This document shows positions 23,342 through 42,215 of a stretch of DNA of 64,000 bases, piece after piece. Under the pieces are notes generated by a model. That model did not search any database. It saw only the letters and a program-made list of their open reading frames with translations, and was not told the origin of the DNA. The number at the start of each line of letters is the position of its first letter. Position 1 is the stretch's first letter. A program made the translations under genes and the position numbers. This stretch comes from Candidatus Omnitrophota bacterium (GTDB lineage Bacteria > Omnitrophota > Gorgyraeia > Gygaellales > Profunditerraquicolaceae): the NCBI GenBank assembly GCA_003598025.1, contig QZKH01000003.1:106048-170047 (forward strand), written 5' to 3'.

Positions 23342-24526
23342 ATGAAACTAAATGTGCTATATATAATTTGGAGTTTAGGCCTTGGTGGCGCAGAGCGGGT
23401 GGTTATTAACCTGGCTAAAGGGCTTGATAGGGATAAATTTAAGTCGATAGTCTGCTGCCTTAATTCTAAGGGCAAATTTGCAGATGAGCTTGAGAAAGAA
23501 GGTATCAGGGTAATAGAATTAAAAAAGAGATGGAAATTTGACTTTAGTGTCATAAAAAAGCTCATTGAAATAATAAAAGAGAATAAAATAAATATTGTGC
23601 ACACACATCTATGGGGTGCGAATTTCTGGGGAAGATTAGCAGCACAAAAGGCAAGTGTGCCTGTGATAATATCCACAGAGCATAATTCTGATACCTGGAA
23701 GACCCCGCTGCATTTTGTCATAGACAGGTATTTAGCAGCTAAGACAGACAGGATAATCGCGGTATCAAAGAGTGTCAAAGAGTTTTATGTTAAGAATGTG
23801 GGGATCCCTTCTGGGAAAATAGAGGTGATTTATAATGGCATAAGTATATCAGAGCACAGATCACAGATCACAGAGCACAGTAAATCACATTCCGTCCACA
23901 GTCCACAGTCCACAGTCCACAGTCAGGATAACTATATTCGTAAACAATTGGCTATCAGTCCTGATGAGACAGTAATAGCTATGATTGGTAGATTGGTGCC
24001 GCAGAAGGGGCATAAGGATTTCTTGTTAGCCTTAAAGGTCCTTACCGGATGCGGATTTAAGGTCAAAGGTTTAATTGTCGGCAGCGGCCCTCAAGAAATG
24101 TATTTGAAACAGGTGTGTGATAACCTTGCCCTTAATGGAAATGTTATTTTTACCGGTGTAAGGAGCGATATCCCGGAACTGTTTAAGGCAATAGATATGA
24201 TTGCTCTTCCTTCAACAAGGGAAGGTTTTCCTATGATTATATTAGAGGCTATGTCTGCAGGAGTACCTGTGGTTGCTTCAAGCGTTGGAGGGGTCCCTGA
24301 AGTTATAACTAACGGTTTTAACGGGCTTTTAGTTGAGCCTGAGAACCATACTGAGTTAAAAGCTGCTTTCGCTAAGTTAATCCATGATGAGCGGTTATCT
24401 AATAGCCTAATAGATAACGCTCGCGCTACAGTAGCAAAAGAATTTAATTTGAGGAATATGATCGATAGCACACAGGGGCTATATGAAAAGATTTATGAAA
24501 GCAAATTGCCTAAGGCGGATAAATGA
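23342..24526 (+). CDS. family 4 glycosyltransferase with in-frame repeat insertion
   Basis: 'GGAERVVINLAKGL' GT4 N-terminus; 'EGFPMIILEAMSAGVPVVAS' EX7E motif. Confidence 0.8.
   Translation: MKLNVLYIIWSLGLGGAERVVINLAKGLDRDKFKSIVCCLNSKGKFADELEKEGIRVIELKKRWKFDFSVIKKLIEIIKENKINIVHTHLWGANFWGRLAAQKASVPVIISTEHNSDTWKTPLHFVIDRYLAAKTDRIIAVSKSVKEFYVKNVGIPSGKIEVIYNGISISEHRSQITEHSKSHSVHSPQSTVHSQDNYIRKQLAISPDETVIAMIGRLVPQKGHKDFLLALKVLTGCGFKVKGLIVGSGPQEMYLKQVCDNLALNGNVIFTGVRSDIPELFKAIDMIALPSTREGFPMIILEAMSAGVPVVASSVGGVPEVITNGFNGLLVEPENHTELKAAFAKLIHDERLSNSLIDNARATVAKEFNLRNMIDSTQGLYEKIYESKLPKADK
23860..23927 (+). repeat. in-CDS insertion: cacagatcacagatcacagagcacagtaaat...gtccacagtccacagtccacagtccacagtc
   Basis: Encodes SEHRSQITEHSKSHSVHSPQSTVHSQ. 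The unit gtccaca is repeated 4x, and the same composite recurs at 27771-27894. Confidence 0.8.
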
Positions 24527-27500
24527 AGAATAAACGCTTAAATATAGCTTTTGTCTTAATCTTTGTCGCAGGTATACTCTTTGCCGGTTTATCTTACGCT
24601 GTGCTTACAAAAACAAAGCCCCTAATAAATAAGATAAAATCAAAAGTCAAAGAGCGTGTTATTGCCAATATCCCAAAGGCAAAAGATCCTCTTGTTATAT
24701 GCGATTTTGAAAACAGCGCGGATTTAGACAAATGGAATGCATCCAAAGCGAGCGTTGAGATATCAGAAGAGCATCCTACTTCCGGAAAGTACTCGGCAAA
24801 GCTTACTTATGAGCCTTCGGGCGATTCCTCATCTGTCAGGATAGAGAAATATTTTGAAAAAGACAGGCGTATTGTAAATTGGTCAGGGTATGAGGCGCTT
24901 GTTTTTGATATTTATAATCCTAATAAGAACGCTGAGAGAATGATCCTTCAGGTGCGGGATAATAGCGGCGGCAAGGTTAAAATTGACCTGCATTTAAGGC
25001 CAAATGCAAATAATAGAATCGAGGTTGATATTAGAAGCCTTTGGGATAAATTAAACCCGTCTAAGATTGACCAGTTAAACCTGTTTTTATGGGGCAATAA
25101 GTCGGTAAAGGCATTTTATTTGGATAGTGTCATGCTTCTTCCCGCGGCAGCATTGGAGAAAGTCGCAAAAAGCATATCAGACGACGAATTTATTCCAAAA
25201 GAAGGCGAGCAAGTTTACGCTTTGGGCGATTACCTGGAGTTTAATAAAGCCAGATGGGGCAGCTGTGAAGACGGGGTATCTGTGCCTATATATATCAACA
25301 ATTTTACTACGGCTAAGCTTAACTCAACGGTTGTCCGCGGAGGCGTGCCTTTTGGAAGAGGGCAGTTAAACAGCCTTGATAAGCTTATGCTAAATGACGG
25401 GGCGGGAAATAATATTGAATTCCAGGCTCAAATTGTGTCAAAGTGGCCTGATGGCAGTATTAAGTGGGCATTGATCTCTTTTAAACCTGAAGTTGATGCC
25501 GCAACTATTAAAAAATACAACTTAGTTTATTCAAATGCAATAAGCAGGAAGAAACAGGAATCAGCTTTAAAAGTAGATGAAGGCTTAAAAAATATTGCGA
25601 TAAATACCGGAAAAATCAAGCTGGTAATACCCAAAAGCGGATTCTATCTTTATGATAAACTTTGGCTGGATAAGAATAATGATAAGAAATTTGATGATAG
25701 CGAGATCGTTTCATCAAAAGCGAGCCTTGTGCTTGAGCGCGACGGCAAGAAATACTACAGCCATTTGGATAAAAATTATAGGCTTACCGTTGAAAAATCC
25801 GGGCCTCTTGAGGCTTGCATAAAGGCAGAGGGATGGTTTGTTGCTGATAACGGAAAGAAGTATTGCAAATTCATTGTCAGGATACATGCCTATGAATTAA
25901 GCGGAGAAATAAAACTCCAGCATACCTTTGTCTATACCGGATACCCGGAAAATAAATATCATTACCTATACAAAGGCAAACGCCTTCCAAGGAATGAAAC
26001 CATAGATGCGGTTTATATTGAGCTTCCCGTAAAGATAGATGGGGATAAAGCTGTAACTTTTGCCGCTGACGATAAAATTATGCAGTCAGCTTTTGGCGGA
26101 GCCATCAGTTTCTTACAGCTTAAACCGGACAGTTATACAGTAACAGGTTCTGGTAAGCCGATTGGCAGCGGAAACAGGCTTGAAGGATGGCTTGATTTGA
26201 GCAGTGATGGCTATGGGGTATCAATTGGAGTAAAAGATTTTTGGCAGCAATTCCCTAAGGGGTTTTCTGTAGATAAAGAAGCGGGTAAGTTAAAAATCGA
26301 TCTCTGGCCTAAAGAAGCAGGCAAACTTGACTTAAAAACTACTCAAAAAGCCTATGGCCCGGACGCAGTCGCACGGGGCAGCGCCTTTGGCCTGGCTAAG
26401 ACGCATGACCTGGCATTTAATTTTCATAACGGAAATTATGAAGTTGGCGAGGTTAAGAATAAAATACGGAGCTTATTAAGCGATGTTGTTATAACTTCAG
26501 ATCCTATATGGGTATCAGATACCAGGGTTTTAGGGAGAATATGGCCGTATGACACGCGTTTTAAATCAGCAGAGAGTTTCTTGAGCAAGCTTTTTGACTG
26601 GGGCAGCAGGCAGGTCGATAAATTTAGCTGGTATGGGATGATAGATTTCGGCGATACTCTATCCTGGTATAGGAAGGAAGCGTACGATAAATCTTATGAT
26701 GACTGGGGCTGGCATCCCGAAGGAAGGCATGGCTGGTTTAATTGTGAGGGAGTTGGCACGCATGCCGGAGCATTAATACAGTTTTTACGGACAGGCAATT
26801 ACAAATATTATATTTTTGGCAAAAACCTCTCGCGCCACATTATGGACATTGATACCTGCCACTATAATACGGTGGCAAATGATAGCAGGCTTAGAGGCAG
26901 GATACCCGAAGATTACAGTCGCCCAGGCTCCATGCACAGGCATAACGCTGACCACTGGGGAGGAAGGAACGAAGAAACTTCGCATACAAATGTTTACGGC
27001 CTGGTTTTGTATTATTATCTTACGGGGAATGAGAGAGCAAGAGATGTTATTGACGAGGTTGGAAGTTTCTTTCTCAAAGAACATATGACATATTTCGGCC
27101 ATCCCGATATTTCACCTCAGCGCTCCATTGCAAATGTTATTTGGGGTGATGTTGTATTATATGAGCTTACAGGAGAAAAAAAATATAAGGAACAGGCAGA
27201 TAAGCTGGTGAATTTATTCTTTAGAGGCCAGAAATACAACGGAGCCTGGCCTGAAAATTATAACCCTGTACGCAAACGCTGGGAAGGCAAACCACATCTT
27301 AGTTTTATGAGCCAATATACCATACCGGCATTAATAAATTATCATATGATTACCGGTAATAAAGCTATTGCCGGTTGTATTATTAATGCTACTGATTTTC
27401 TTATTGAGAGCGACGAGTACGGCGCTATATTAGATGCGCTTAGCTATAGCTATTGGCTGACCGGAGATAAAAAATACAAAGATACATTGAATAAAAAGCT

Positions 27501-27654
27501 TGATTACACGGTAAGGCACCAGAAGGCAAGCACTGACCCGTTATTTGACGGCATGATTTACCAAAAAGCATATTATGCAAGGGTAATGGAATATTTGTAC
27601 AACTTACCGTTTGCTTTTGAGGGATTGGCACAAGATGAAAAAACCGGAAAATAA
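24523..27654 (+). CDS. large exported/membrane-anchored protein of the polysaccharide locus (candidate glycan-modifying enzyme; family not recognised)
   Basis: 1043 aa. N-terminal signal anchor 'IAFVLIFVAGILFAGL', then a beta-rich region and a Trp/His-rich C-terminal region. Confidence 0.45.
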   Translation: MKNKRLNIAFVLIFVAGILFAGLSYAVLTKTKPLINKIKSKVKERVIANIPKAKDPLVICDFENSADLDKWNASKASVEISEEHPTSGKYSAKLTYEPSGDSSSVRIEKYFEKDRRIVNWSGYEALVFDIYNPNKNAERMILQVRDNSGGKVKIDLHLRPNANNRIEVDIRSLWDKLNPSKIDQLNLFLWGNKSVKAFYLDSVMLLPAAALEKVAKSISDDEFIPKEGEQVYALGDYLEFNKARWGSCEDGVSVPIYINNFTTAKLNSTVVRGGVPFGRGQLNSLDKLMLNDGAGNNIEFQAQIVSKWPDGSIKWALISFKPEVDAATIKKYNLVYSNAISRKKQESALKVDEGLKNIAINTGKIKLVIPKSGFYLYDKLWLDKNNDKKFDDSEIVSSKASLVLERDGKKYYSHLDKNYRLTVEKSGPLEACIKAEGWFVADNGKKYCKFIVRIHAYELSGEIKLQHTFVYTGYPENKYHYLYKGKRLPRNETIDAVYIELPVKIDGDKAVTFAADDKIMQSAFGGAISFLQLKPDSYTVTGSGKPIGSGNRLEGWLDLSSDGYGVSIGVKDFWQQFPKGFSVDKEAGKLKIDLWPKEAGKLDLKTTQKAYGPDAVARGSAFGLAKTHDLAFNFHNGNYEVGEVKNKIRSLLSDVVITSDPIWVSDTRVLGRIWPYDTRFKSAESFLSKLFDWGSRQVDKFSWYGMIDFGDTLSWYRKEAYDKSYDDWGWHPEGRHGWFNCEGVGTHAGALIQFLRTGNYKYYIFGKNLSRHIMDIDTCHYNTVANDSRLRGRIPEDYSRPGSMHRHNADHWGGRNEETSHTNVYGLVLYYYLTGNERARDVIDEVGSFFLKEHMTYFGHPDISPQRSIANVIWGDVVLYELTGEKKYKEQADKLVNLFFRGQKYNGAWPENYNPVRKRWEGKPHLSFMSQYTIPALINYHMITGNKAIAGCIINATDFLIESDEYGAILDALSYSYWLTGDKKYKDTLNKKLDYTVRHQKASTDPLFDGMIYQKAYYARVMEYLYNLPFAFEGLAQDEKTGK

Positions 27655-28459
27655 GAAAAAGTCTATACTAATGTACCACTCTGTGGGTTTTCCTGTTTTG
27701 GGGGATCCGGGTAACGGACTGTATTGTGTAAGTAAGGAGAATTTCAGGGAACAGATGCAATACATTACACAGGTCACAAAGACACAAAGTCACAAGGTCA
27801 CAGAACACAGTAAATTTGATGAAGTCCACAGTCCACAGTCTACAGTCCACGGTAAATTGGATGCTGTGGTCCGTCGACCGTCGACCGTCGACTGCTTAAT
27901 AACCTTTGACGACGGGGATGTGACGAATTTTACACAGGCTTATCCGGTATTAAAAGAACTGGGATTAACTGCGTATTTCTTTATATTAGCCGGCAAGATC
28001 GGCTCATCGGGCTATATGAGCTGGGGACAGATAAAAGAAATGCATGATAATGGCATGATTATCGGTTCGCATGGCATGACACATAGGATAATGCCCGCAC
28101 TATCCGATAAAGACATCAGGTATGAAATAAACACTTCAAAGGAATTCATTGAAGGCAAGCTTAAAACAAAGATTTATTATTTTTCGATACCGCGCGGATT
28201 CTATAATAAGAAAATATTGGGGATGCTGAAAAAAGCAGGATATAAAGGGGTTTTTACATCAGACTCCGGCAGGATAAATGATTATGAATTCGGCAGGATA
28301 GCGATCAGGAGCAATTGGGGGATAGGCCAGTTTAAAAAAGTATTGGAACGCGGGCCAAGCGTAAAAGATAAGCTTGAAGGAAGGCTTCGTAAGTCAGCGA
28401 TCAATTTGATAGGCATAAACAATTACGATAAATTAAGGATGGGATTGCTAAAGAAATGA
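27635..28459 (+). CDS. polysaccharide deacetylase (NodB homology domain) with N-terminal in-frame repeat insertion
   Basis: 'ITFDDGDVTNFTQAYPVLKELGLTAYFF...GSHGMTH' NodB motifs. ATG at 27635 after RBS gaggga; alternative TTG at 27611. Confidence 0.8.
   Translation: MKKPENKKKSILMYHSVGFPVLGDPGNGLYCVSKENFREQMQYITQVTKTQSHKVTEHSKFDEVHSPQSTVHGKLDAVVRRPSTVDCLITFDDGDVTNFTQAYPVLKELGLTAYFFILAGKIGSSGYMSWGQIKEMHDNGMIIGSHGMTHRIMPALSDKDIRYEINTSKEFIEGKLKTKIYYFSIPRGFYNKKILGMLKKAGYKGVFTSDSGRINDYEFGRIAIRSNWGIGQFKKVLERGPSVKDKLEGRLRKSAINLIGINNYDKLRMGLLKK
27771..27894 (+). repeat. in-CDS composite repeat insertion (modules H-D-G)
   Basis: gtcacaaagacacaaagtcacaagg, cacagtaaat, gtccacagtccacagtc, gtggtccgtcgaccgtcgaccgtcgac. 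Encodes QVTKTQSHKVTEHSKFDEVHSPQSTVHGKLDAVVRRPSTVD. Confidence 0.8.
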
Positions 28460-29229
28460 AGATATTATTCTGGGTTTCACTGTTGGTAATAATTTATGTT
28501 TATCTCGGGTATCCGTTATTGGCGTACCTGTTTTCGCTGCTTTATAAAAAACCATTAGCCGCAAAATATGTTTATCCGACGGTATCTATCTTGATTTCGG
28601 TCCATAATGAGGAGATAAATATCCGGAATAAGATTAATTCTTTGATGGAACTTGATTATCCGCAGGATAGATTAGAGATTATTTTCGGGTCGGATGGGAG
28701 TACGGATGGCACCGAAGAAATAATAAAACGAGATATTGAGGCCACAAGGCCACAAGGTCACAAGGTCACATTAGTAAGGCAGGAGAAGAGGCTGGGGAAG
28801 CCGAGCATGCTGAATAAGCTGGTAAAAGAAGCCAAAGGAGAAATCCTTGTCTTTACCGATGCCAGGCAGAGGTTGGACAATAATGCCTTAAAAGAGCTGG
28901 TCAAGCATTTTGCCGACGGAAAAGTTGGCTCGGTCAGTTCAGAGTTGATTTATGAGGATGAATCGCCGGAAAATAAGTCTTCAGGCGGAATTAACCTTTA
29001 TTGGGAATATGAAAAGTTTATCCGTAAAAGTGAATCACGCATGGGCTCTATGCTTGGGGCGACAGGCGCTCTCTATGCGATAAGAAGCAAGCTCTTCCCG
29101 GGGCTGCCTGAGGATATGATATTGGATGATGTTTATATCCCCATGAAAATTGTTGAAAAGGGCTATCGTGCGGTATTTGACTCTAAGGCCAAGATTTATG
29201 ATAAGGTATTCAGCGCGACCCGAAGATAG
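28456..29229 (+). CDS. family 2 glycosyltransferase, catalytic portion (apparently truncated by a frameshift near 29200-29245)
   Basis: 'YPTVSILISVHNEEINIRNKINSL' GT2 N-terminus, 'DAR' region, then a stop after ...FSATRR. Confidence 0.6.
   Translation: MKILFWVSLLVIIYVYLGYPLLAYLFSLLYKKPLAAKYVYPTVSILISVHNEEINIRNKINSLMELDYPQDRLEIIFGSDGSTDGTEEIIKRDIEATRPQGHKVTLVRQEKRLGKPSMLNKLVKEAKGEILVFTDARQRLDNNALKELVKHFADGKVGSVSSELIYEDESPENKSSGGINLYWEYEKFIRKSESRMGSMLGATGALYAIRSKLFPGLPEDMILDDVYIPMKIVEKGYRAVFDSKAKIYDKVFSATRR
28741..28770 (+). repeat. in-CDS insertion of module E (gccacaaggccacaaggtcacaaggtcaca)
   Basis: encodes ATRPQGHKVT. Confidence 0.7.
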
Positions 29230-29243
29230 AATTTTCCAGAAGG

Positions 29244-29624
29244 GTGCGCACACTGGCAGGGAATTTCCAGTTATTTTATTACCTCAAAGAGTTATTTAAT
29301 CCATTCAGGGGCAAAATATCCTGGCAGTTTTTTTCACATAAATTTTTAAGGCTGATTATTCCGCTATTCCTGGCACTGCTATTATTATCCAGCGCCTTTT
29401 TATTTAACGAGCCGTTTTATAGATTATTTTTATTTTCTCAGGAGGCGTTTTATATCTTTGCTATACTCGGTAAATATTCAAAGCGCCGCAATAAAATTTT
29501 CGATGTTCCGTATATGTTCTGTATTATGAATTATGCTGCGGTAATCGGTTTTTACCGTTTCTTAAACAATAAACAGGGGGTCCTATGGGAAAAGGCAGCA
29601 ACTTTGGATTTACGCAAAGCTTAA
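29244..29624 (+). CDS. C-terminal membrane segment of the GT2 (probable continuation of 28456-29229 in another frame)
   Basis: GTG-initiated 126-aa ORF. The upstream in-frame translation reads ...EFSRRVRTLAGNFQ, resembling the GT2 QxxRW/...GNxQ region, followed by TM helices. Confidence 0.4.
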   Translation: MRTLAGNFQLFYYLKELFNPFRGKISWQFFSHKFLRLIIPLFLALLLLSSAFLFNEPFYRLFLFSQEAFYIFAILGKYSKRRNKIFDVPYMFCIMNYAAVIGFYRFLNNKQGVLWEKAATLDLRKA

Positions 29625-30433
29625 ATAAAGAATCTGTTATCAGGCTGGCTGTAATTGCCGGGTTGATTATTATTTCGTATATTCCGACTTTAATCTGGAT
29701 GGTCGAAAGATGGACGGCAAAGGATACGTATTATAGCCATGGTTTTCTTGTGCCTTTTATCAGTTTATACTTGGTTTGGCAGAAAAGGCCTGTTTTGTCA
29801 AAGATAAAGCCTCAGCCGCTGGCAAAAGGCTGGATTGTTTTTGCCGCAGGTACGCTTATCCACATTATCAGCGCTTTATGGAGGGTTTATTTTACTTCGG
29901 GTTTCTCCATTTTGCTTGTCATATCCGGGCTGATACTTATTTTCTTAGGCAAAGAGTTCCTTAAAAAACTTATTTTCCCCGTATTATTCCTGATATTTAT
30001 GATACCTCTGCCGTTGGTTGCAATTGCTAATTTAAGTTTTAAATTGAAGATTTTAGCTGCGCAGCTCTCGACGGTAATCATCAATAAGTTAGGTGTGCCG
30101 GCGATAAGGGATGGAAGCGTAATAAAAACAATGAATTCCTATATAATTGTCGAGGACCCTTGCTCAGGGATAAGGTCGTTGATCGCGCTTATCGCATTGG
30201 GCGCGCTTATGGCTTATAACAGCAGCCTGCCGGTCATCAAAAAATATATCTTATTTGTTTCCGCGGTCCCCGTTGCTATCGCCGGAAATGTTATCAGGAT
30301 AGTCGCGCTTTCGCTTGCCAGCGAGATGTACGGCTCAAAATTAGCCGCAGGTTTGTTTCATACAGTTATGGGCGTAGTGGTTTTTGTATTCGCGTTTTTT
30401 GCATTACTCTTAATAGGGAAGGTGCTGGAATGA
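29585..30433 (+). CDS. xrt: exosortase (XrtA-like, PEP-CTERM-specific transpeptidase)
   Basis: Eight TM helices. 'YYSHGFLVPFISLYLVW' N-terminal motif, active-site 'DPCSGIRSL' Cys, conserved Arg/Asn region 'AGNVIRIVAL'. Confidence 0.8.
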   Translation: MGKGSNFGFTQSLNKESVIRLAVIAGLIIISYIPTLIWMVERWTAKDTYYSHGFLVPFISLYLVWQKRPVLSKIKPQPLAKGWIVFAAGTLIHIISALWRVYFTSGFSILLVISGLILIFLGKEFLKKLIFPVLFLIFMIPLPLVAIANLSFKLKILAAQLSTVIINKLGVPAIRDGSVIKTMNSYIIVEDPCSGIRSLIALIALGALMAYNSSLPVIKKYILFVSAVPVAIAGNVIRIVALSLASEMYGSKLAAGLFHTVMGVVVFVFAFFALLLIGKVLE

Positions 30434-31050
30434 AAAATAAAACATTTTATATTGCTGCGGCCGTTTTGTTATTTACGTCGGTAGTCTGCATCGTGTCATA
30501 TTTCCCATCGAGTTTTGACAAATCTGAGGATGCGAAAGTCGCAACTTTTCCGAAAGAAATCAACGGATGGGTTGCGCGTGACCTTGAAATATCCGAGCGC
30601 GATTATAAGATACTTGAAACGAGGAATCTTTTTGTCAGGGAATATACAAATGCTGCGCAGGAGAAGGTGTATTTTTATTTTATTTATTCTCTTGATAACC
30701 GAAAGGTCAGCCATCCTCCGGAGATTTGTTATATGGGCAGCGGAGTAACTGTTGTTGATAAATCAACAGTTCAACTGACAGATAAAATAAAAGCCGTAAA
30801 GTTAATAATTGAAAAAGCAGACCATCGTCAGTTGGTTGCTTATTGGTTTCAGGCAGGCGCCTTTAATACACATAAATATTTACTACAGCAATTAAGGGTT
30901 GTTTTGAATAGGGCTGTGGGGAAACAGACACCGAATGCGCTCATAAGGCTTTCGGCTGATTTTACTCCCGGGCAGGAGGGGAAAGCTTTAAATACATTAA
31001 AAGCCTTTACTCGTGATATTGAGCCTTCAGTTAGTAACTTTTTTAAATAA
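30430..31050 (+). CDS. epsI: EpsI family protein (exosortase-associated)
   Basis: Signal anchor; 'SHPPEICYMGSG' hallmark HxPExCY motif. The ATG overlaps the exosortase stop (ATGA). Confidence 0.8.
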   Translation: MKNKTFYIAAAVLLFTSVVCIVSYFPSSFDKSEDAKVATFPKEINGWVARDLEISERDYKILETRNLFVREYTNAAQEKVYFYFIYSLDNRKVSHPPEICYMGSGVTVVDKSTVQLTDKIKAVKLIIEKADHRQLVAYWFQAGAFNTHKYLLQQLRVVLNRAVGKQTPNALIRLSADFTPGQEGKALNTLKAFTRDIEPSVSNFFK

Positions 31051-31276: not shown

Positions 31277-31292
31277 TGGCATGAATCTTGCT
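31277..31292 (+). promoter_or_regulatory. candidate sigma-54 (-24/-12) promoter for the sugar-transferase/PEP-CTERM operon
   Basis: TGGCATGAATCTTGCT matches consensus TGGCACGnnnnTTGCW at 15/16 positions. It lies about 80 nt upstream of the ATG at 31374. Confidence 0.45.
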
Positions 31293-31373: not shown

Positions 31374-32249
31374 ATGAAAGCGAAAAATAAAAACAAAATT
31401 TCAAAATTCAGCCTGTTGGCGGCGATCCTGTTTATTTCCGGCATGTTGTTGGCATTTGAGCCGGTTTTCAGCATAAAAAATATTTTTGCAGTGACTTATG
31501 TTGAGCATCCATCTATCGTTGAAGATTCAAGCCTGAATAGCGGTTACTCTGCACAAGAACCTAACCAGCGAACCCCCAATAAAGCCCGCGCGCCTGAACC
31601 AAGCAGTATGTTTTTGCTTTTAAGCGGCCTGACCGGCATGCTTGTCAGGTTTGCAAGAAAGAGTTATGAACGTTTTAAGAGGCTTGCTGATATCATCTTA
31701 GCTTTTGTGGCTGCTGTGTTTGCTTTGCCTGTTATGGCTTTTGCAGCCCTGTTGATAAAATTGACTTCATCCGGGCCGTTTATCTACAGGCAGGATAGGG
31801 TAGGCAAGGGCGGGCAAATATTCCGTATTTATAAATTAAGGACAATGTATGTTAACGCTGAAAAAGGCACAGGCGCCGTGTGGGCAAGAAAAAATGACCC
31901 CAGGATTACGCCTGTCGGAAAGCTTCTCAGGAAAACTCATATTGATGAAGTCCCGCAGTTAATCAATGTCCTAAAAGGAGAGATGAGTATTGTAGGGCCG
32001 CGCCCTGAAAGGCCAGAGTTGGTAAGGGAATTAAAAACCTTAATCGTTGATTACGAAAAAAGGCTCTCCGTTAAGCCTGGTATCACGGGTTTGGCGCAGG
32101 TTTGGCATAAATATGACGAGACTTTAGAAGACGTTAAAAAGAAAATTAAAATTGATTTGTTATACATCAAGAGAATGTGCCTTGCCGCTGATTTAAGAAT
32201 AATGGCAGGGACAGTGCTTGTGATGTTAACAGGAAAAGGAGCAAGGTAA
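31374..32249 (+). CDS. undecaprenyl-phosphate sugar phosphotransferase (Bac_transf family) with N-terminal extension containing a PEP-CTERM-like motif
   Basis: Catalytic 'PFIYRQDRVGKGGQIFRIYKLRTM...IDEVPQLINVLKGEMSIVGPRPERPE'. The N-terminal 100 aa contain a signal-like helix plus 'APEPSSMFLLLSGLTGMLVRFARK'. Confidence 0.85.
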   Translation: MKAKNKNKISKFSLLAAILFISGMLLAFEPVFSIKNIFAVTYVEHPSIVEDSSLNSGYSAQEPNQRTPNKARAPEPSSMFLLLSGLTGMLVRFARKSYERFKRLADIILAFVAAVFALPVMAFAALLIKLTSSGPFIYRQDRVGKGGQIFRIYKLRTMYVNAEKGTGAVWARKNDPRITPVGKLLRKTHIDEVPQLINVLKGEMSIVGPRPERPELVRELKTLIVDYEKRLSVKPGITGLAQVWHKYDETLEDVKKKIKIDLLYIKRMCLAADLRIMAGTVLVMLTGKGAR

Positions 32250-32250
32250 A

Positions 32251-32886
32251 ATGAAAAAATTAATATTTGTATTTGTCTTATTGATTTCACTCTTTATTTT
32301 TAATCAGGCTGATGCTTCTCTTTGGCTTGATGCTACACCTTCAATTTATATTAACAGCAATCCTGACCCGTGGTTTACGGATAGCTGGATAACCGGCCCG
32401 GGTGATTTTACTCTCAGGATTACAAACACTTTTACTCAAGATGATATTGAGGATGTTTATCTCGTTATCGCTTTGAAAGAAAGCACAAAAGATGGGTTAT
32501 CTATTGATATAGACGGAGACGGGCTTGATGATAGTGATTTTGATACTTCCGGAGATCATCCGTATATCACGGATTCGCACGGAGTTTTCGGCGACGATAC
32601 ATATTTCTATGATTATTATATCGGGAACCTTGCCGCAGAAGAGTATATTGAATTTGATATATCAATAGAAACAGAGGGTTCTCCTATCGTGCATTTTGAC
32701 GCATACGGTTATAAAGTGAAGAATAACGGCGATCTTTTATTGGTGGATAATCCCAATTCCCATGATGTAACCTGGGATCCTCCGTTGTATATTGAATTGA
32801 CCAATACCGTACCTGAACCGGCAACATTATCATTGCTTGGCTTAGGCATGATGGGTTTGCTTTTCTCAAGAAGGCGTAAATGCTAA
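32251..32886 (+). CDS. PEP-CTERM sorting-domain protein 1
   Basis: Signal peptide; C-terminal 'VPEPATLSLLGLGMMGLLFSRRRKC'. Confidence 0.85.
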   Translation: MKKLIFVFVLLISLFIFNQADASLWLDATPSIYINSNPDPWFTDSWITGPGDFTLRITNTFTQDDIEDVYLVIALKESTKDGLSIDIDGDGLDDSDFDTSGDHPYITDSHGVFGDDTYFYDYYIGNLAAEEYIEFDISIETEGSPIVHFDAYGYKVKNNGDLLLVDNPNSHDVTWDPPLYIELTNTVPEPATLSLLGLGMMGLLFSRRRKC

Positions 32887-33584
32887 AGTTAATAAGTATA
32901 GTTTTAGCTATTCTGGTATTGACGATCGCGATAAGCGCGGATATTTACGCTTATACGGTTACTTATCTTGACCCTTATTCCAGCGCAACCACGCTTTACA
33001 GCGCAGCAGGGGACAGGATAGGCAATATAGCGTTTGAATTATATAAAGTTGACGTAACAAAAGCAGGAAACAATCTTACCTTTGATATCTATTCAAATTA
33101 CTCTTCTTCAGGATATTCTGTAGGTTCATGGCATACAATGCCTGCTGACCTGGCGCTGGATGTAAATAATGACGGGACATATGACTATGGTGTGGCATTC
33201 CGTAATCACGACGGCTTAATACAAGGTAAGCTTTATTCAGTTTCGGATTGGTACATTTCAGGCTATGACCGGCCGGGTAATGGTTTCATCTGGCATCACG
33301 GAGAATTAGTCAGTATAAAGGATATTGATGCCGAACTTGGCGATGCTGCAGTTACCTGGAATGATTTAGGCGGCAGCAACCCGCATTACAAAATAAGCAC
33401 AGTTATTGATATGAATGATTTCTTACCTAACGGTTACAGCGGAGATTTAGGTTTTTTCTATGGCGGTGCAACATGCGCCAATGATTACATAGGCGGGATA
33501 TTTTCAATAACAACCCCTGAGCCTGCATCGTTATCTTTGTTCGGCTTAGGATTACTCGGTTTAATAATACGCAGGAAGAAATAG
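32880..33584 (+). CDS. PEP-CTERM sorting-domain protein 2
   Basis: Signal peptide; C-terminal 'TPEPASLSLFGLGLLGLIIRRKK'. Confidence 0.85.
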   Translation: MLKLISIVLAILVLTIAISADIYAYTVTYLDPYSSATTLYSAAGDRIGNIAFELYKVDVTKAGNNLTFDIYSNYSSSGYSVGSWHTMPADLALDVNNDGTYDYGVAFRNHDGLIQGKLYSVSDWYISGYDRPGNGFIWHHGELVSIKDIDAELGDAAVTWNDLGGSNPHYKISTVIDMNDFLPNGYSGDLGFFYGGATCANDYIGGIFSITTPEPASLSLFGLGLLGLIIRRKK

Positions 33585-33597
33585 GAAAGGAGAGGAT

Positions 33598-34206
33598 ATG
33601 TTTCGGGTCAAGTTATTGGTTGCGGTTATGTGTATTTCTTTATTGTCTTTTATCAGCGCGCACGCAGCGTTAATAAACGGAGGTTTTGAAACAGGCGACC
33701 TTTCTGGATGGTCAAATAATTCCGGCATTTTGGCAGCTACAGTTAATTCGTATTCAGGAGACATTGCATATTCTCCCGTGGAAGGTGATTATTTTTTAAA
33801 GCTTACAAGCGGATTGGGCACAGGTGCCTATTCAATAGTGAACCAGTCTTTGAGTTTGCAGCAGGGTGCTAAACTTTCCGGCTGGGCTGCTTTTGATGCA
33901 GGTGACTACCTGCCTTACAATGATGATGCATACGTAAAAATCGGTAACTCTACTGTATGGAGCAGGGATATTTCCCAGGTTGGTAATTATGGATATACAA
34001 ATTGGCAGCAATGGAATTGGGAAGCGCCAACAGCCGGGAGCTATACGCTGGAATTTGGTGTACGCAATGTCGGAGATAATGGGCTTAGCAGTTTAGCTTT
34101 ATTTGATGCCAATTTTTTGGCGACCTCTGCTGTGCCTGAGCCGGCAACAATGTCTTTGTTCGGCTTAGGATTGTTAGGCTTAGGTCTTATTAAAAGGAAG
34201 AAATAG
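33598..34206 (+). CDS. PEP-CTERM sorting-domain protein 3
   Basis: Signal peptide; C-terminal 'VPEPATMSLFGLGLLGLGLIKRKK'; RBS ggaaaggagagg upstream. Confidence 0.85.
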   Translation: MFRVKLLVAVMCISLLSFISAHAALINGGFETGDLSGWSNNSGILAATVNSYSGDIAYSPVEGDYFLKLTSGLGTGAYSIVNQSLSLQQGAKLSGWAAFDAGDYLPYNDDAYVKIGNSTVWSRDISQVGNYGYTNWQQWNWEAPTAGSYTLEFGVRNVGDNGLSSLALFDANFLATSAVPEPATMSLFGLGLLGLGLIKRKK

Positions 34207-34228
34207 ATTTAAATATATTAAGAAGGAG

Positions 34229-34894
34229 GTGAAACAAATGAAGAAGTTGCTATTTTTAACTGCAGCGTTAATATTGGGAGTAAGCGTAGTTTCTTACGCA
34301 GCATTGATAGACCTTGGTATGGCAACAGGTTCTGGAGAACTAAAGATGTTTGAAATCTACAATGCTATGTATAGTACTGGTTTTACCAATAATGATCAGC
34401 TTGAAGCTCTTGAAGTTGATCTGGCTATAGGCGGCGGAAAATACAAGTCAAATTCCGGGACTGTCGGGCTGGTGGCAAGGTATGCAAGCGCACCGGTTAC
34501 TTTAAGATATTACGACAGCGGCGGTGACCATGATTTGGATCCAGCCTTAGTTAATCTTGCAGGTGGAAGTGCGCTATATGCTCCTCCCGTAATTACGTTT
34601 TACACAGTTACAGGGACTGAAGAATTCGGAATGTGGGGGTTGACTTCAGCCGGAAAGTTTTACTCCGAGAAGTCATTAAATGCTGACGGAAAATATCATT
34701 TTCTGGTTTTAAGCACTCCGGATCCGAAGAAATTCTTGATAGGGTTTGAAGACAGGTCAGCCGGTGCAGACTGGGATTATAATGACTTTGTTTTTGAGAC
34801 TTATAACATATTCGCAACTCCCGAGCCTACAAGTATGTTGTTATTAGGGATGGGCGCTTTAGGATTGTTAGGTTTAAAGAGAAAAAAGGCCTAA
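34229..34894 (+). CDS. PEP-CTERM sorting-domain protein 4
   Basis: Signal peptide; C-terminal 'TPEPTSMLLLGMGALGLLGLKRKKA'; RBS aaggaggtg upstream. Confidence 0.85.
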   Translation: MKQMKKLLFLTAALILGVSVVSYAALIDLGMATGSGELKMFEIYNAMYSTGFTNNDQLEALEVDLAIGGGKYKSNSGTVGLVARYASAPVTLRYYDSGGDHDLDPALVNLAGGSALYAPPVITFYTVTGTEEFGMWGLTSAGKFYSEKSLNADGKYHFLVLSTPDPKKFLIGFEDRSAGADWDYNDFVFETYNIFATPEPTSMLLLGMGALGLLGLKRKKA

Positions 34895-34962
34895 GTTTTT
34901 TCTTTACCGATAATTCTATAAATGCCCCCTTATAGGTGTGCATTTTCGAAAATGTAAAAATA

Positions 34963-34996
34963 AGGGGGTAAATCGTAAGGTTTACCCCTTTTATTT
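34963..34996 (+). terminator. intrinsic terminator
   Basis: ggggtaaa-tcgtaagg-tttacccc hairpin followed by TTTTATTT. Confidence 0.55.
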
Positions 34997-35012
34997 AACT
35001 CTAAAGGAAAAT

Positions 35013-35285
35013 ATGAGATTAAGCAAGAAATTAACAACCTTATCTCTAATGTCTTTTGTCGCTGGTTGTGGAGGGAGCGATGGAGGGGGAGGTTTATTGA
35101 GCTCTATTTTTGGCGGCAGCTCTGCCGGAGCATCAGCTGGTGTTTTAGATTCCGGAGTTGTTGATGGAGCCTCTTTAGCCCTGACCCATAATCCCGAACC
35201 CAGCAGCCTACTCTTACTCTCAAGCGGTCTCCTTGGAATGGCTGTTTATGCCAGGGCAAAGGCTTGGAAAAAAGGTAAGAAATAA
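35013..35285 (+). CDS. mini PEP-CTERM lipoprotein (Gly/Ser-rich)
   Basis: Lipobox 'LMSFVAGCGG', Gly/Ser-rich middle, C-terminal 'NPEPSSLLLLSSGLLGMAVYARAKAWKKGKK'. ATG at 35013 after RBS aaggaaa. Confidence 0.7.
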   Translation: MRLSKKLTTLSLMSFVAGCGGSDGGGGLLSSIFGGSSAGASAGVLDSGVVDGASLALTHNPEPSSLLLLSSGLLGMAVYARAKAWKKGKK

Positions 35286-37132: not shown

Positions 37133-38327
37133 TCAAATCTTAAATTCATCCCTGGATTTAAAGTTCAAGAGTTTCCTTGAAGAGGTGCTCAAGGATGTTA
37201 TGTATGCTCTTTCTGCTGAATGCGGCTCCCTTTTTATTTTTGATGCCGGGCATAAGGAGCTTATCCTTGATTCTTTCCTGAATTCATGCAACCTTCGTAT
37301 TAAAGGTCTTAAGAAAAGGGTAGGTGAGGGTGTTTCAGGAAAGGTCGCAGATATCAATAAGCCGGTGCTGGTCAAGAACATCAAAGCAGACGCGCGCTTT
37401 AGAAGCAATGGGTACAAGCATTATAAGACAGCGTCATTTATGTCAATACCGATAATAACTTCCAAAGGTTTGATCGGCCTGATAAATATTGCCGATAAAT
37501 CGAATAAAGAGCCATTCAGCGAGAGTGATCTTAAATTTGCCGTAGCAATAGTAAAATATGCAGTCATGCTTCTTGAGGCAAGCGATAGCTGCAGTGAATT
37601 AAAGTCCGAGAAAGAATGTTTAGGCAAAGAAAAAGAACTGCTTACTAAATACGCCTCTGTAGGCAAGCTTGCTGCGGGAGTTGTGCATGAAATCAATAAT
37701 CCCCTTGACGGGATAATCAGGTTCACAAATATCCTTATTGAGCAGATAGAGAACAATTCAGTAAGCAAGGAATACCTTTTAGAAGTAAAGAATGGTTTAA
37801 GCCGTATAGCTAAAATTACAAAATCATTATACGAATTTTCACATATCGTCAACGTAGATTCATTAAAGACAAGAGAATATGTTTATTTAAATGATATGCT
37901 GGATGAGCCTCTAAAAGTTTACGCTGAGAAAATCATGAACGGCAATATCCAGATAAAGAAGAAATTCAATGCCGGTTCCATTAAAGTGGTTGATTTCGGT
38001 TTGCAGCACGTTTTTTCTAATCTAATAAAGAATGCCCTGGATTCAATTCAGGCAGTCGGAATAATAGAGATTTCTACTGAGCTGCATAATGATACCGTCA
38101 AGATCGGTTTTAAAGATTCAGGTACCGGTATCCCTTCCGAAATATTGGGGCATATTTTTGAGCCTTTTTTTACCACTAAACCTGTCGGTAAAGGTACGGG
38201 CCTGGGGCTGTCGATCTGCAGGGAGATTATAAATAAATATGAAGGAAAGATCGATGTATCCAGCGCTGTCGGAGACGGCTCAAATTTTACCGTTACAATA
38301 AACAGAAAATACACCAAGAATGCATAA
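37119..38327 (+). CDS. GAF-domain sensor histidine kinase (HisKA + HATPase_c)
   Basis: N-terminal GAF, H-box 'AAGVVHEINNPL', N/G-boxes 'GFKDSGTGIP...KGTGLGLSI'. Confidence 0.8.
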   Translation: MPQSNQILNSSLDLKFKSFLEEVLKDVMYALSAECGSLFIFDAGHKELILDSFLNSCNLRIKGLKKRVGEGVSGKVADINKPVLVKNIKADARFRSNGYKHYKTASFMSIPIITSKGLIGLINIADKSNKEPFSESDLKFAVAIVKYAVMLLEASDSCSELKSEKECLGKEKELLTKYASVGKLAAGVVHEINNPLDGIIRFTNILIEQIENNSVSKEYLLEVKNGLSRIAKITKSLYEFSHIVNVDSLKTREYVYLNDMLDEPLKVYAEKIMNGNIQIKKKFNAGSIKVVDFGLQHVFSNLIKNALDSIQAVGIIEISTELHNDTVKIGFKDSGTGIPSEILGHIFEPFFTTKPVGKGTGLGLSICREIINKYEGKIDVSSAVGDGSNFTVTINRKYTKNA

Positions 38328-39726
38328 TAATCACGGGCATATACTTATTATTGATGATGAGCCTTTGGTTAGACGTTCTCTTTCTGAGATGCTTACGGTC
38401 TCAGGCTATGCAGTGAGTACTGCCTGCAACGGCAGTGAGGCGCTGAACCTTTTAAAAGATTATACGGTTGATATCATAATATCTGATATGAAGATGCCGG
38501 AGATGGATGGGATGCAGTTATTAAAGAGCTTAAAGAGCTTAAGATACGATGCCGCAGTTATCCTGATGACCGGATATGGGACTATTGACGGGGCAGTGGA
38601 GGCGATGAGGCACGGCGCATATGATTACGTAACCAAACCGATAGTTGACAGCGAGATAAAAATAATTATCAAGCGCTATCTTGACCAGTGCAGGATCAAA
38701 GAAGAAAACTTAAGGCTTAAAGAGCAATTATCAGTTAAAGAGCGCGAGGTCTTTCTTGATATAGTAGGTAAAGACGAAAAGATGCAAAAAATCTATAATC
38801 TTATAGAAGCAGTATCTAATACCAGGGCCACTGTTTTGATACACGGAGAAAGCGGCACCGGTAAAAGGCTGATTGCGCATGCCATACATAATTGTACCAC
38901 CCAGGAGAAAAAGAAGCCTTTCGTTGAGGTAAGCTGTGGGGCGCTTACCGATACTCTACTTGAGAGTGAATTATTCGGGCATGTAAAAGGGGCGTTCACC
39001 GGGGCCATAAAAGATAAAATGGGTCGTTTTGAGCTGGCAGACGGCGGCACTATTTTTCTGGATGAGATAGACGCTTTTTCCCCTGTGCTTCAGGTCAAGT
39101 TATTGCGCGTGTTGCAAGAAGGAGACTTAGAAAGGGTAGGGGATAATAAGACAATAAAAGTGGATGTAAGGATAATAGCTGCTACGAATCAGAGCCTGGA
39201 ACAATTAATCGAACAGGGCAAATTCAGGAAGGACCTGTATTACCGCTTAAACATAATTTCTATAGAAGTGCCTCCGCTAAGGCTGCGTAAGTTAGATATA
39301 CCGCTTTTGGTCAAGACTTTCATAAGCAAGCATTCAAAGAGTATAAATAAAAAAATAGACGACATATCTGATAAAGCATTGTCTTTATTGATTGAATATA
39401 GCTGGCCGGGGAATATCAGGGAGCTTGAAAATGTCATTGAGAGGACGATCATACTGTGTAAGGGTCCGGTTATAAGTCACCACGACCTGCCGGATTTCCT
39501 GCAAAAACAAAAATTCTCAAGCGAATCAGCGGCTGTAGATAAGAGCGGCTGCCTGAAGCTTAAAGATGCGTTAATAGCCCCTGAAAAAGAATTAATAATT
39601 AATACCTTAAATACGGTAAACTGGAACAGGACCGAGGCAGCAAAAGCGTTGGGTATTAATCGGACTACTCTTTATAAAAAGATGGGCAAACTTGGTTTAC
39701 TCAAGAATAATGGCAGAGAACAATAA
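38320..39726 (+). CDS. sigma-54-dependent response regulator (NtrC family; PrsR-like PEP-CTERM-box regulator candidate)
   Basis: REC domain with 'IIISDMKMP', AAA+ 'GESGTGKRL', GAFTGA, and a C-terminal Fis-type HTH 'NWNRTEAAKALGINRTTLYKKM'. Confidence 0.9.
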   Translation: MHNNHGHILIIDDEPLVRRSLSEMLTVSGYAVSTACNGSEALNLLKDYTVDIIISDMKMPEMDGMQLLKSLKSLRYDAAVILMTGYGTIDGAVEAMRHGAYDYVTKPIVDSEIKIIIKRYLDQCRIKEENLRLKEQLSVKEREVFLDIVGKDEKMQKIYNLIEAVSNTRATVLIHGESGTGKRLIAHAIHNCTTQEKKKPFVEVSCGALTDTLLESELFGHVKGAFTGAIKDKMGRFELADGGTIFLDEIDAFSPVLQVKLLRVLQEGDLERVGDNKTIKVDVRIIAATNQSLEQLIEQGKFRKDLYYRLNIISIEVPPLRLRKLDIPLLVKTFISKHSKSINKKIDDISDKALSLLIEYSWPGNIRELENVIERTIILCKGPVISHHDLPDFLQKQKFSSESAAVDKSGCLKLKDALIAPEKELIINTLNTVNWNRTEAAKALGINRTTLYKKMGKLGLLKNNGREQ

Positions 39727-40828: not shown

Positions 40829-42166
40829 CTAGCGTTTCCTTCTAAATACCGTAGAAAGTATCTTTAAGTCCTGCCTGTATTTTGTTACAGTCCTCCTGGA
40901 TACCTTTATATTGGAATTTTTATGGATAAGCTCAGCAATCTGCTTGTCGCTTAATGGGTGGGATTTATCCTCAATATCAATACAATCTTTAATTAATTTT
41001 TTTGCCTGGTTGCATGAGACTGACTGGCCATTGGTATCAAAGACTTTGCTTGGGAAAAAATCTTTGATTGCAACCATTGACCAGGGTGTTTTTACATATT
41101 TGTTCATTATGGCCCGGCAGACAGTAGTTTCGTGCATATTGATTCTTTGCGCCACTTCTTTAAATGTAAGCGGTTTTAGCAGAGAAAATTCTTCATTTTT
41201 TATAGCCTCGCATTGAATATCTGCTATTACTTCCAAAATCAGCTTTAATGTCGATTTTCTCTTTGAGATAGCCCTGAGTATATCATTAGCGGCTTTAATC
41301 TTTTCGGTTATGAATTTTCTTAAATTAGGGTCAAGGCTTTTATCCTTAAGCATTGCTTTGTATTCTTTGTTTATATCAATTTTAGGCAGGCTTTCATCAT
41401 TTATTATTACCTCTATATCATCACTATGAATTTCGATTCTTGCATCCGGCCTGATCCTTTGATCTTCTTCTGTGGAATAGTTTCTTCCGGGTTTAGGGTC
41501 AAGCCTAAGGATTTTATGCGCAAGTTCTTCAATTAAACCAGGGTCCTGATTCAGGTCTTTTGCGATTACTTTAAAATTCTTTTTTGCTACGTTATCCAGG
41601 TGTTTTTCAACAATTTCTCTTAGTATAGGATTTGTATCGCTATTTTGGTCAAGCTGTATAAGAAGGCACTCTTTCACAGAGCGCGCTCCCACGCCAGCAG
41701 GCTCAAATTCGTGTATTATCTTTAAGATGCGCTCAACAGTCCCGGCAGGGACAGCGCAGGAGGAGGCTATCTCATCAAAGCTGGCTTTTAGGTAGCCGTT
41801 TTCATCAATATTGCCTATGATTTCTTCACCAATCCTGAAGTCACCATCATCAGAAACAAATATCCCTAATTGCCTAAGCAGGCAATCCTGCAAGGAGGTT
41901 TTCTTAGTGACAGATTCAAGCTGGAATTTGACGTCTTCATCAGTAAATTTTTTAAGCGATAGGGGAGAGGCTGGCCGGAAACCCTTGGCTAAAGATCCGC
42001 CAGAGGCGCTATAAGAAGGCTTTTCTTCAAGGGCAGGATTTGATTCCAGCTCCTTTTCAATAAGGCCTTCAATTTCGCTCAGGGGCAGCGCTAAAACGTT
42101 TAAAGAATTGGAAAGCGCTGGTACCAATAATCTGCGTAATTCTGTGCGTTGTTTTGTTTGCATCAT
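40829..42166 (-). CDS. rpoN: RNA polymerase sigma-54 factor
   Basis: C-terminal RpoN box 'RRTVTKYR', HTH, and a Gln/Leu-rich N-terminus. The start was set at the MMQTKQ... ATG pair; the track ORF extends to 42229. Confidence 0.9.
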   Translation of the reverse strand: MMQTKQRTELRRLLVPALSNSLNVLALPLSEIEGLIEKELESNPALEEKPSYSASGGSLAKGFRPASPLSLKKFTDEDVKFQLESVTKKTSLQDCLLRQLGIFVSDDGDFRIGEEIIGNIDENGYLKASFDEIASSCAVPAGTVERILKIIHEFEPAGVGARSVKECLLIQLDQNSDTNPILREIVEKHLDNVAKKNFKVIAKDLNQDPGLIEELAHKILRLDPKPGRNYSTEEDQRIRPDARIEIHSDDIEVIINDESLPKIDINKEYKAMLKDKSLDPNLRKFITEKIKAANDILRAISKRKSTLKLILEVIADIQCEAIKNEEFSLLKPLTFKEVAQRINMHETTVCRAIMNKYVKTPWSMVAIKDFFPSKVFDTNGQSVSCNQAKKLIKDCIDIEDKSHPLSDKQIAELIHKNSNIKVSRRTVTKYRQDLKILSTVFRRKR

Positions 42167-42215
42167 AGCATGATAAGTATAACATATTAATACAAAATAC
42201 TTCAATTTAAATTGC

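Follow-up and report, generated by a model that had tools for sequence, protein, structure and literature searches.

The window analysed here, a stretch of 64,000 nucleotides (nt) from contig QZKH01000003.1 of a Candidatus Omnitrophota bacterium, holds a single gene with a Bac_transf domain, the open reading frame (ORF) at 31374-32249. This ORF encodes a putative priming phosphoglycosyl transferase whose catalytic core is preceded, in one continuous frame, by an extension resembling a miniature PEP-CTERM protein, with a signal-peptide-like start, a spacer and a Pro-Glu-Pro (PEP) motif that abuts a hydrophobic helix and a basic cluster. The gene lies between an exosortase-EpsI gene pair and an array of canonical PEP-CTERM genes. 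The whole ORF and the features of its catalytic part are the following:

31374-32249, forward strand: priming phosphoglycosyl transferase with an N-terminal PEP-CTERM-like module, 291 amino acids (aa), whole ORF
31677-32228, forward strand: Bac_transf catalytic domain, residues 102-285, including the invariant pair D191-E192 (nt 31944-31949), from PF02397, Foldseek and sequence matches
31677-31766, forward strand: re-entrant membrane helix of a monotopic transferase, residues 102-131, from invariant columns and the alignment with PglC and WbaP

The core is a bona fide PglC-like monotopic transferase, for which the transfer of a sugar-1-phosphate to polyprenyl phosphate is predicted. PF02397 matches residues 102-285 with 219.6 bits (gathering score 27), and the catalytic part can be aligned with the solved structures of WbaP (8t53, residues 322-527) and PglC (8e37 and 8g1n, residues 10-187). 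Foldseek retrieves the same structures, namely 8e37_A (E 9.8e-9, probability 1.0, TM-score 0.58 normalised to the target), 8g1n (PglC, E ~1e-8) and 8t53_A (WbaP, E 3.3e-6). In an alignment of 89 homologues with 55-64% identity (the window clade), D191 and E192 are invariant and fall on the Asp-Glu of the WbaP stretch ..LDELPQL..; from established knowledge of PglC, we take this pair to be the catalytic dyad. K102, R103, D106 and P119 are also invariant, the hydrophobic peak of this region spans residues 103-126, and the re-entrant helix aligns with PglC from residue 10 and with WbaP from residue 322 onward. The AlphaFold2 (AF2) model, with a mean predicted local distance difference test (pLDDT) score of 76, draws the second helix of the extension and the re-entrant helix as one straight helix (residues 76-131), in which the re-entrant geometry is not seen.

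Window residues 101-287 align with residues 10-187 of PglC from Campylobacter, and both proteins have a re-entrant helix that is preceded by basic residues and broken by an invariant proline, as well as an invariant Asp-Glu pair. Unlike PglC, which has about nine residues before the re-entrant helix, the window protein has about 96, made up of a putative signal peptide, a predicted periplasmic spacer and a PEP-CTERM-like helix that would cross the membrane. Since the equivalent of F101 lies only some nine residues into PglC, the first ~96 residues are regarded as an add-on, and they appear to turn a nominally monotopic enzyme into a bitopic one. A first inspection of the DNA (the sequence-only reading) had described an extension of roughly 100 residues and had placed the start of Bac_transf near residue 105; the domain does begin close by, at residue 102, but the SYERFKR stretch begins at residue 97 and not at 105.

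The extension occurs in all of the best 120 homologues of the window protein, which are about 290 aa long and 57-73% identical over the aligned part; where window-clade homologues are named, the names are Omnitrophica or Omnitrophota only. The NCBI protein (P0001, 277 aa) begins at a TTG 14 codons inside the ORF (31416 instead of 31374), a start that would remove the basic beginning of the signal sequence. The ATG at 31374 is favoured because M1 (98%), K8 (74%) and a lysine-rich start are kept in the homologues. The different annotated start, together with the chimeric nature of some database fragments, could be taken to mean that a separate PEP-CTERM gene and a transferase gene have been misread as one ORF or that the true start is internal. 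Such an artefact is scarcely credible, since no stop codon separates extension and core, the same continuous frame recurs in more than 200 independent metagenome or genome sequences with variable spacers that always remain in frame, and an exhaustive profile search returned essentially no full-length stand-alone copies of the extension.

The extension and its PEP-CTERM-like segment

Three parts can be distinguished in the extension from charge, hydropathy, the AF2 model, conservation and matches to the PEP-CTERM families:

31374-31490, forward strand: signal-peptide-like region, residues 1-39, from charge, hydropathy, AF2 and conservation
31491-31589, forward strand: predicted periplasmic spacer, residues 40-72, from the conservation profile, AF2 and charge
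31590-31661, forward strand: PEP-CTERM-like segment APEPSSMFLLLSGLTGMLVRFARK, residues 73-96, from TIGR02595, PF07589 and conservation

The first 11 residues (MKAKNKNKISK) carry a net charge of +5 and are followed by the hydrophobic helix FSLLAAILFISGMLLAF at residues 12-28, with a Kyte-Doolittle peak at residues 13-27 and an AF2 helix at residues 11-27 (pLDDT ~90), which bears out the signal-peptide-like helix of the sequence-only reading. After an E-P break that follows this helix comes the pair F38-A39, in which A39 is invariant and F38 is 94% conserved. F38-A39 is a possible signal peptidase site, and in that case A39 might correspond to the cleavage site of a second clade of transferases (clade 2, see below), whose N-terminal part, with a classical ..TAWA↓T.. 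site, falls opposite the region of window-clade residues 1-39 in profile-to-protein matches.

The spacer is 33-45 aa long and consists of a conserved VTYFDxPKV-like start, a variable middle rich in Ser, Asn, Gln and Pro, and a conserved K-S-[HR] end; thus, the Ser/Pro-rich stretch that had been described exists as a spacer, but its composition is not simply Ser/Pro-rich. The AF2 model has pLDDT values below 50 at residues 35-43 and 50-61 and is uninformative for residues 33-75 and for the packing of helices 1 and 2. Directly after the putative signal peptidase site, residues 38-48 (31485-31517) form the conserved motif F-A-[VI]-T-Y-F-D-x-P-K-V, and clade 2 shows ..AWA-T-L-S-F-V-K at a seemingly corresponding place. 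This motif suggests a periplasmic tail that may have a function of its own, e.g., strand pairing with EpsI or with the exosortase.

The sequence around the PEP-CTERM-like segment reads K70-A-R-A73-P-E-P76, then SSMFLLLSGLTGMLV and R92-FARK96, so that P74-E75-P76 is directly followed by about 15 hydrophobic residues (S77-V91) and by the basic residues R92..R95-K96. The PEP motif, hydrophobic helix and basic cluster that had been pointed out in the sequence-only reading are therefore present at residues 73-96, where both TIGR02595 and PF07589 match. The net charge changes from +5 at the start to -1 over residues 29-72 and to +5 again over residues 92-105, a pattern compatible with an in-out-in topology in which the PEP motif would lie on the periplasmic side.

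Taken alone, the model scores of the window protein are marginal. The search of the N-terminal region with TIGR02595 that had been recommended finds exactly this segment, and the whole protein passes the curated cutoff of 16 narrowly, with 16.7 bits (E 0.0094), the isolated 28-mer reaching 22.8 bits. PF07589 gives 18.8 bits for the whole protein, below its gathering score of 20.7, and 23.1 bits for the isolated segment. The homologues add to this picture: A73, E75 and G85 are invariant in the 89-sequence alignment, with conservation of 99% at P74 and R92 and of 83% at P76, so that the columns of the PEP segment are conserved like catalytic residues and the spacer is highly variable. Moreover, 63 of the 89 window-clade homologues match TIGR02595 at E<0.1, and 104 of the best 120 homologues keep APEP, the others having APEA, APEF or APEL and one of them AAEP. 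Because of this conservation across homologues, the segment is considered more than a chance resemblance; the possibility raised beforehand, that homologues would share a plain transmembrane region with a non-conserved PEP tripeptide, does not agree with a motif that is kept in the homologues.

The window-clade segment carries a signature of its own, K-S-[HR]-A-P-E-[PAFL], with an invariant prefix and with S-G in place of G-L-G, and seems to represent a distinct, divergent flavour of PEP-CTERM. In addition, 195 residues (97-291) follow it, whereas Haft et al. 2006 (PMC1569441) describe PEP-CTERM sequences as lying close to the C-terminus in virtually all cases. The segment is called PEP-CTERM-like, and not a member of the family, because it lies so far from the C-terminus.

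An exhaustive search of 1.84 billion representative proteins with a profile of the extension gave 31 matches in all. The window clade is a single cluster at 50% identity, and more distant full-length relatives are represented by P0141, P0148 and P0142. P0141 defines a second large clade, in which Omnitrophota names are found again, sampled here as 120 listed proteins of about 282 aa. Clade-2 proteins have a textbook signal peptide (..TAWA↓TLSF..), a variable spacer and RAPEP at 90% or more, within a segment of the form [KS]R[AS]RAPEP[AST]TMALFG[SG]GFLGM..SF[VI]RRTY..KR.FD that leads into Bac_transf. About 30 of the 120 listed proteins carry precomputed PF07589 and PF02397 annotations, and a profile built from the 27 canonical PEP-CTERM tails encoded beside these transferases (the substrate-tail profile) matches all 120 with a median of 23.6 bits. 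Identity between the window protein and P0141 is 58% from residue 56 on, a part that includes the PEP segment. The fusion architecture is thus kept in at least three diverged clades; the module appears to be homologous across them and to resemble a miniature PEP-CTERM protein, the window clade probably carrying a more derived version. P0142 (328 aa) keeps the module, with HAPEP, and some 45 arginine-rich residues (..RRRNINRDRRSEASFKEGTDRRNEERRKISS..) are inserted into its catalytic domain, where they separate the conserved YKQ.RVG from the KLRTM motif.

In the reciprocal direction, extension profiles retrieve every canonical PEP-CTERM ORF in the related loci through their signal-peptide and PEP-CTERM segments, and apart from these ORFs all scores in the loci are at most 6 bits. 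Stand-alone copies of the extension were limited, among the 1.84 billion representative proteins, to truncated gene calls and P0143, a PEP-CTERM protein of 105 aa with weak similarity to the extension (E 6e-5). A word-indexed search with the extension profile gave only four fragmentary or chimeric proteins and is uninformative on family size.

These comparisons bear on the view that the segment reflects chance or convergence, the extension being an ordinary transmembrane hairpin with a PEP tripeptide at the start of its second helix by accident. The marginal scores of the window protein itself (TIGR02595 barely above its cutoff, PF07589 below its gathering score) would allow this. Nevertheless, the motif is near-invariant in 89 plus 120 homologues, clade-2 proteins have PF07589 records and match the substrate-tail profile, and the reciprocal matches of the extension profile go only to PEP-CTERM proteins. 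Moreover, G85 and G88 stand at the same offsets from PEP as in the substrates (the second glycine of G-x-G and the following glycine), and 58% identity between clades speaks against a single very shallow clade. Chance or convergence is therefore very improbable and already close to refuted.

The literature searched contained no description of a sugar transferase with an internal PEP-CTERM segment. NCBIfam holds no dedicated model for this architecture, and the sources name the protein 'sugar transferase'.

The exosortase locus and the upstream sigma-54-like element

The gene order in the window is GT2, exosortase, EpsI, a gap of 323 nt, the transferase, four PEP-CTERM genes and a mini PEP-CTERM lipoprotein, followed by a TPR protein, a histidine kinase, a sigma-54 activator and a PocR/GAF protein, with rpoN on the opposite strand. 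The features of the locus that concern the transferase are the following:

29585-30433, forward strand: exosortase, XrtA-like, 282 aa (TIGR02602 170.3 against a cutoff of 105.55; TIGR04178 66 against 23)
30430-31050, forward strand: EpsI family protein, 206 aa (TIGR02914 84.4 against a cutoff of 42.8)
31277-31292, forward strand: sigma-54 type -24/-12 element TGGCATGAATCTTGCT, TGGCAT-N5-TTGCT, 97 nt upstream of the transferase start
32251-34894, forward strand: four canonical PEP-CTERM genes (32251-32886, 32880-33584, 33598-34206 and 34229-34894), from TIGR02595
37119-39726, forward strand: GAF histidine kinase and sigma-54-dependent response regulator, PrsK/PrsR-like, from Pfam domains

The exosortase contains the motifs DPCSGIRS, GNVIR and FHTVMG. 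The first PEP-CTERM gene begins 2 nt past the stop codon of the transferase, and the four PEP-CTERM neighbours match TIGR02595 with 23-29 bits at their extreme C-termini. Co-occurrence with exosortase was judged at the level of 12 distinct loci, and the order exosortase-EpsI-transferase-PEP-CTERM, after GT2, is found in 11 of them, across three clades. A scan for related loci by narrow-pattern alignment, whose patterns limit the count, confirmed 6 loci, all of them from Omnitrophota-type metagenome-assembled genomes, one of which is labelled Planctomycetales; the taxonomic range of the fusion is thus based on few named metagenome-assembled genomes.

Two departures from this order were noted. 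In the twelfth locus (L002, ERZ27247977 k141_2227476), the transferase P0094 is preceded by type IV pilus/type II secretion genes (PilM/N/O, secretin, T2SSE), and the downstream kinase, sigma-54 regulator, PocR/GAF protein, rpoN and sigma-54 element are kept. In L003/L006 (MHGH01000016.1; L003 2221-7696), the exosortase-EpsI region is interrupted by AAA_14/DUF4143, AbiEii, ORF6N and 23S_rRNA_IVP genes and a 78-aa N-terminal fragment of the exosortase is duplicated upstream of the complete copy; neither the PEP-bearing transferase nor the PEP-CTERM genes are disrupted.

The system is considered XrtA-like and divergent because the XrtA equivalog models score below their cutoffs and TIGR02602 and TIGR02914 pass. 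Specifically, the exosortase reaches 189.5 against the XrtA cutoff of 208, and the two regulators reach 390.7 against 502.6 (TIGR02915, PEP_resp_reg) and 82 against 300 (TIGR02916). Other XrtA-system models also remain below cutoff, namely pepcterm_ChnLen (255 against 279), pepcterm_ATPase (297 against 324.5), pepcterm_TyrKin (172 against 231) and pepcterm_export (93 against 180). XrtA-system families are nonetheless the best match for most proteins of the locus, including the exporter, chain-length determinant, ATPase, exosortase, EpsI and the PrsK/PrsR-like pair, the exceptions being the tyrosine kinase (TIGR01007, above cutoff) and the amidotransferase (generic asparagine synthase).

In the same type of locus, with exosortase, EpsI, PEP-CTERM, PrsK/PrsR-like and RpoN genes, the large transferases of TIGR03013 (EpsB_2) and TIGR03025 play the same role. 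The N-terminal region of such large priming transferases comprises several transmembrane helices plus a cytoplasmic domain. The window protein scores 245.3 bits against 393.35 with TIGR03013, matching only profile positions 253-443 and hence not the full length, and falls narrowly below cutoff with TIGR03025 (289.6 against 295.55 bits). Across the two models the match covers profile positions of about 251-445, and in this catalytic half the similarity is close. Thus, the N-terminal part of about 250 residues found in the large transferases is absent here and replaced by the PEP-CTERM-like module.

The sigma-54 type element TGGCAT-N5-TTGCT upstream of the transferase is the sole match in the 64 kilobases (both strands), with 0.15 expected by chance; 12 of 100 shuffles contained one or more matches. 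In 12 of 13 loci, a relaxed form of the element occurs no more than 400 nt ahead of the orthologous gene, compared with a background frequency of 0.016 per 400 nt, and the window locus also encodes a sigma-54 activator (38320-39726) and rpoN (40829-42229, minus strand). In proteobacteria, PEP-CTERM genes are RpoN-dependent and the priming enzyme gene epsB2 (TIGR03013) adjoins prsK/prsR, as in Aquincola (PMC9850573). Together with this precedent, the element suggests that the transferase heads a sigma-54 operon of exosortase substrates, which implies that the transferase and the downstream PEP-CTERM genes would form one operon of the RpoN/PrsR type. An Rfam search of the 323-nt leader found no riboswitch or known RNA at E up to 1.

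Possible coupling of polysaccharide priming to protein sorting

Exosortases have been tied to exopolysaccharide loci since 2006 only by gene neighbourhood and co-occurrence, the partner to which their cargo is attached and the reason for their presence in such loci being open questions (PMC1569441), and a preprint of 2023 still describes exosortase chemistry as unknown (10.1101/2023.06.07.544157). In the topology predicted for the window protein, the N-terminus would be cytoplasmic and helix 1 would cross outward as a signal sequence, leaving the spacer in the periplasm. The PEP motif would then lie where the inner membrane faces the periplasm, helix 2 would cross back, and the basic region, re-entrant helix and catalytic domain would be found on the cytoplasmic side. 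This in-out-in arrangement matches the one that Haft et al. 2006 (PMC1569441) proposed for PEP-CTERM proteins before they are processed, in which PEP is modelled at the membrane-periplasm interface and bound by EpsH.

With canonical PEP-CTERM proteins (TIGR02595/PF07589), the transferase shares a PEP motif abutting about 15 hydrophobic residues and a subsequent basic cluster, as well as a signal peptide-like start, an adjacent exosortase and a sigma-54-type promoter-like element. Unlike them, it has the segment in an internal position, with 195 residues of cytoplasmic enzyme after it, a signature of its own and a low score with the substrate-tail profile. On these grounds, we lean slightly towards the reading that the extension is an exosortase-recognition module which couples polysaccharide priming to protein sorting in a divergent XrtA-like locus. 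The exosortase encoded two genes upstream would recognise the A-P-E-P interface, and the module would dock the priming enzyme in the substrate site of the exosortase, by which the start of the polysaccharide could be coupled to sorting in space or time. The sequence-only reading had proposed either the fusion of a miniature PEP-CTERM protein to the transferase or the anchoring or processing of the transferase by exosortase. The former stands as an architecture, given the profile matches and the continuous ORF, and the latter we infer from topology, conservation and synteny.

More specifically, and only tentatively, the exosortase might act on the priming enzyme of its own pathway, either by cleaving it, as a step of maturation or licensing or with the peptide as cargo, or by retaining it as a pseudo-substrate subunit. 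Whether cleavage at PEP occurs is close to an even question. If it does, a peptide of about 35 aa, with conserved first residues, would be freed and a helix-anchored transferase would be left behind. Alternatively, the module could serve as a stable pseudo-substrate tether, which would fit the invariant K-S-[HR]-A-P-E signature. Strict conservation of A-P-E would fit cleavage and tether alike. The K-S-[HR]-A prefix, the replacement of G-L-G by S-G and the tolerance of A, F or L as third motif residue speak for a specialised interaction, possibly one without turnover.

Several observations weigh against exosortase recognition, some of which would favour an exapted anchor, that is, a module taken from a PEP-CTERM protein that now serves only for insertion, anchoring or dimerisation, as a two-helix hairpin or a type I anchor, and makes no contact with exosortase. 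Firstly, the window-clade segment has drifted far from the local substrate consensus, with a median of 6.9 bits against the substrate-tail profile compared with 41-57 bits for real substrates, so that the idea of the embedded segment as one more copy of the local substrate signal was rejected; the transferases are still the best non-substrate matches of this profile among 509 ORFs. Secondly, 17% of the 89 homologues have A, F or L as the last residue of the PEP motif, whereas all 27 neighbouring substrates keep PEP, and the residues before PEP are K-S-[HR]-A instead of the hydrophobic V/I of the substrates. Thirdly, L002 has no exosortase within 8 kilobases. Moreover, large transferases of the WbaP type also have extra N-terminal transmembrane helices, and the basic cluster merges with the juxtamembrane basic stretch of the transferase that aligns with WbaP; this share of the resemblance therefore comes free. 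Finally, the distance from the first helix to the putative signal peptidase site in the window clade is 11 residues, which is long, and helix 1 may therefore stay in place as a signal anchor.

Even so, a mere anchor would need no invariant A-P-E at the periplasmic interface, which is kept in three clades despite variation in the hydrophobic part. PglC-type cores need no added helix, as the alignment of PglC from residue 10 indicates, and an anchor role would not account for the tight placement of the gene behind exosortase and EpsI in 11 of 12 loci. The exapted anchor is therefore judged rather unlikely.

If the exosortase did cleave or retain the priming enzyme of its own pathway, this would provide the first direct molecular link between exosortase-mediated sorting and polysaccharide priming. 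It would also be the first case in which a sortase-like C-terminal signal is employed internally and the 'leaving group' is a functional enzyme. As a priming transferase with the recognition signal of the exosortase, the protein constitutes a natural 'Rosetta stone' fusion, which predicts physical contact. The fusion further indicates that a PEP-CTERM-type signal can function, or can at any rate be kept under strong selection, far from the C-terminus, and internal signals of this type bear on the strategy by which genomes are searched for them. The hosts are uncultivated Omnitrophota.

The fusion also adds a bitopic, signal-peptide-bearing variant to the superfamily of monotopic transferases. 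Fused members of this superfamily, as collected in sequence-similarity-network surveys, carry additional glycosyltransferase, sugar-modifying or regulatory domains. The window protein likewise combines a small core with an extra module tied to the same pathway, but unlike in those fusions the module is a protein-sorting signal across the membrane and not an enzyme or regulatory domain.

The mini lipoprotein and other genes of the locus

The array of PEP-CTERM genes ends with a small gene:

34938-35285, forward strand: mini PEP-CTERM lipoprotein ORF, with a likely start at M26 (35013) and the lipobox VAGC

The protein is Gly/Ser-rich, contains ..NPEPSSLLLLSSGLLGM..KKGKK and reaches 30.8 bits with the substrate-tail profile; with 22.1 bits, it is the best non-transferase match of the extension profile. 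A conserved mini protein of about 90-115 aa ends each PEP-CTERM gene array, as at 10414-10698 in L001, 13486-13788 in L007, 13714-14055 in L008, 11696-11977 in L009 and 9919-10200 in L012. Its layout consists of a lipoprotein-type signal (e.g., ..VAGC or ..ITAC), a Gly/Ser-rich stretch and an NPEP-CTERM, an arrangement by which one end of the protein would be held by a lipid and the opposite end would carry an exosortase tag. In the window, the tails of the transferase and the mini lipoprotein share 13 of 21 positions after PEP, and the other four substrates share 8-10 of 21 with the transferase. Alignment of the mini lipoprotein with the extension is confined to the PEP-CTERM part. An origin of the extension from the array-end mini lipoprotein was rejected as unsupported, since in other loci the mini proteins share 5-10 of 21 positions and are no closer than the large ones.

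Among the other genes, the GT2 gene upstream of the exosortase (28456-29624, forward strand) is split into 257 aa in frame 1 and 126 aa in frame 3, with matches that change frame near 29208-29229. In L001 and L012 the orthologue is one undivided gene (383-388 aa), and the split represents either a frameshift pseudogene or a sequencing error. Between the glycosyltransferases and the deacetylase, a protein of 1043 aa (24523-27654, forward strand) combines PcRGLX-like (rhamnogalacturonan lyase-like) with GH127-like domains and may serve to trim the polysaccharide. Just beyond rpoN, a Y-family DNA polymerase with IMS domains is encoded together with a LexA-like repressor about 0.6 kilobases further on (42974-45323, minus strand), both of which appear unrelated to the transferase.

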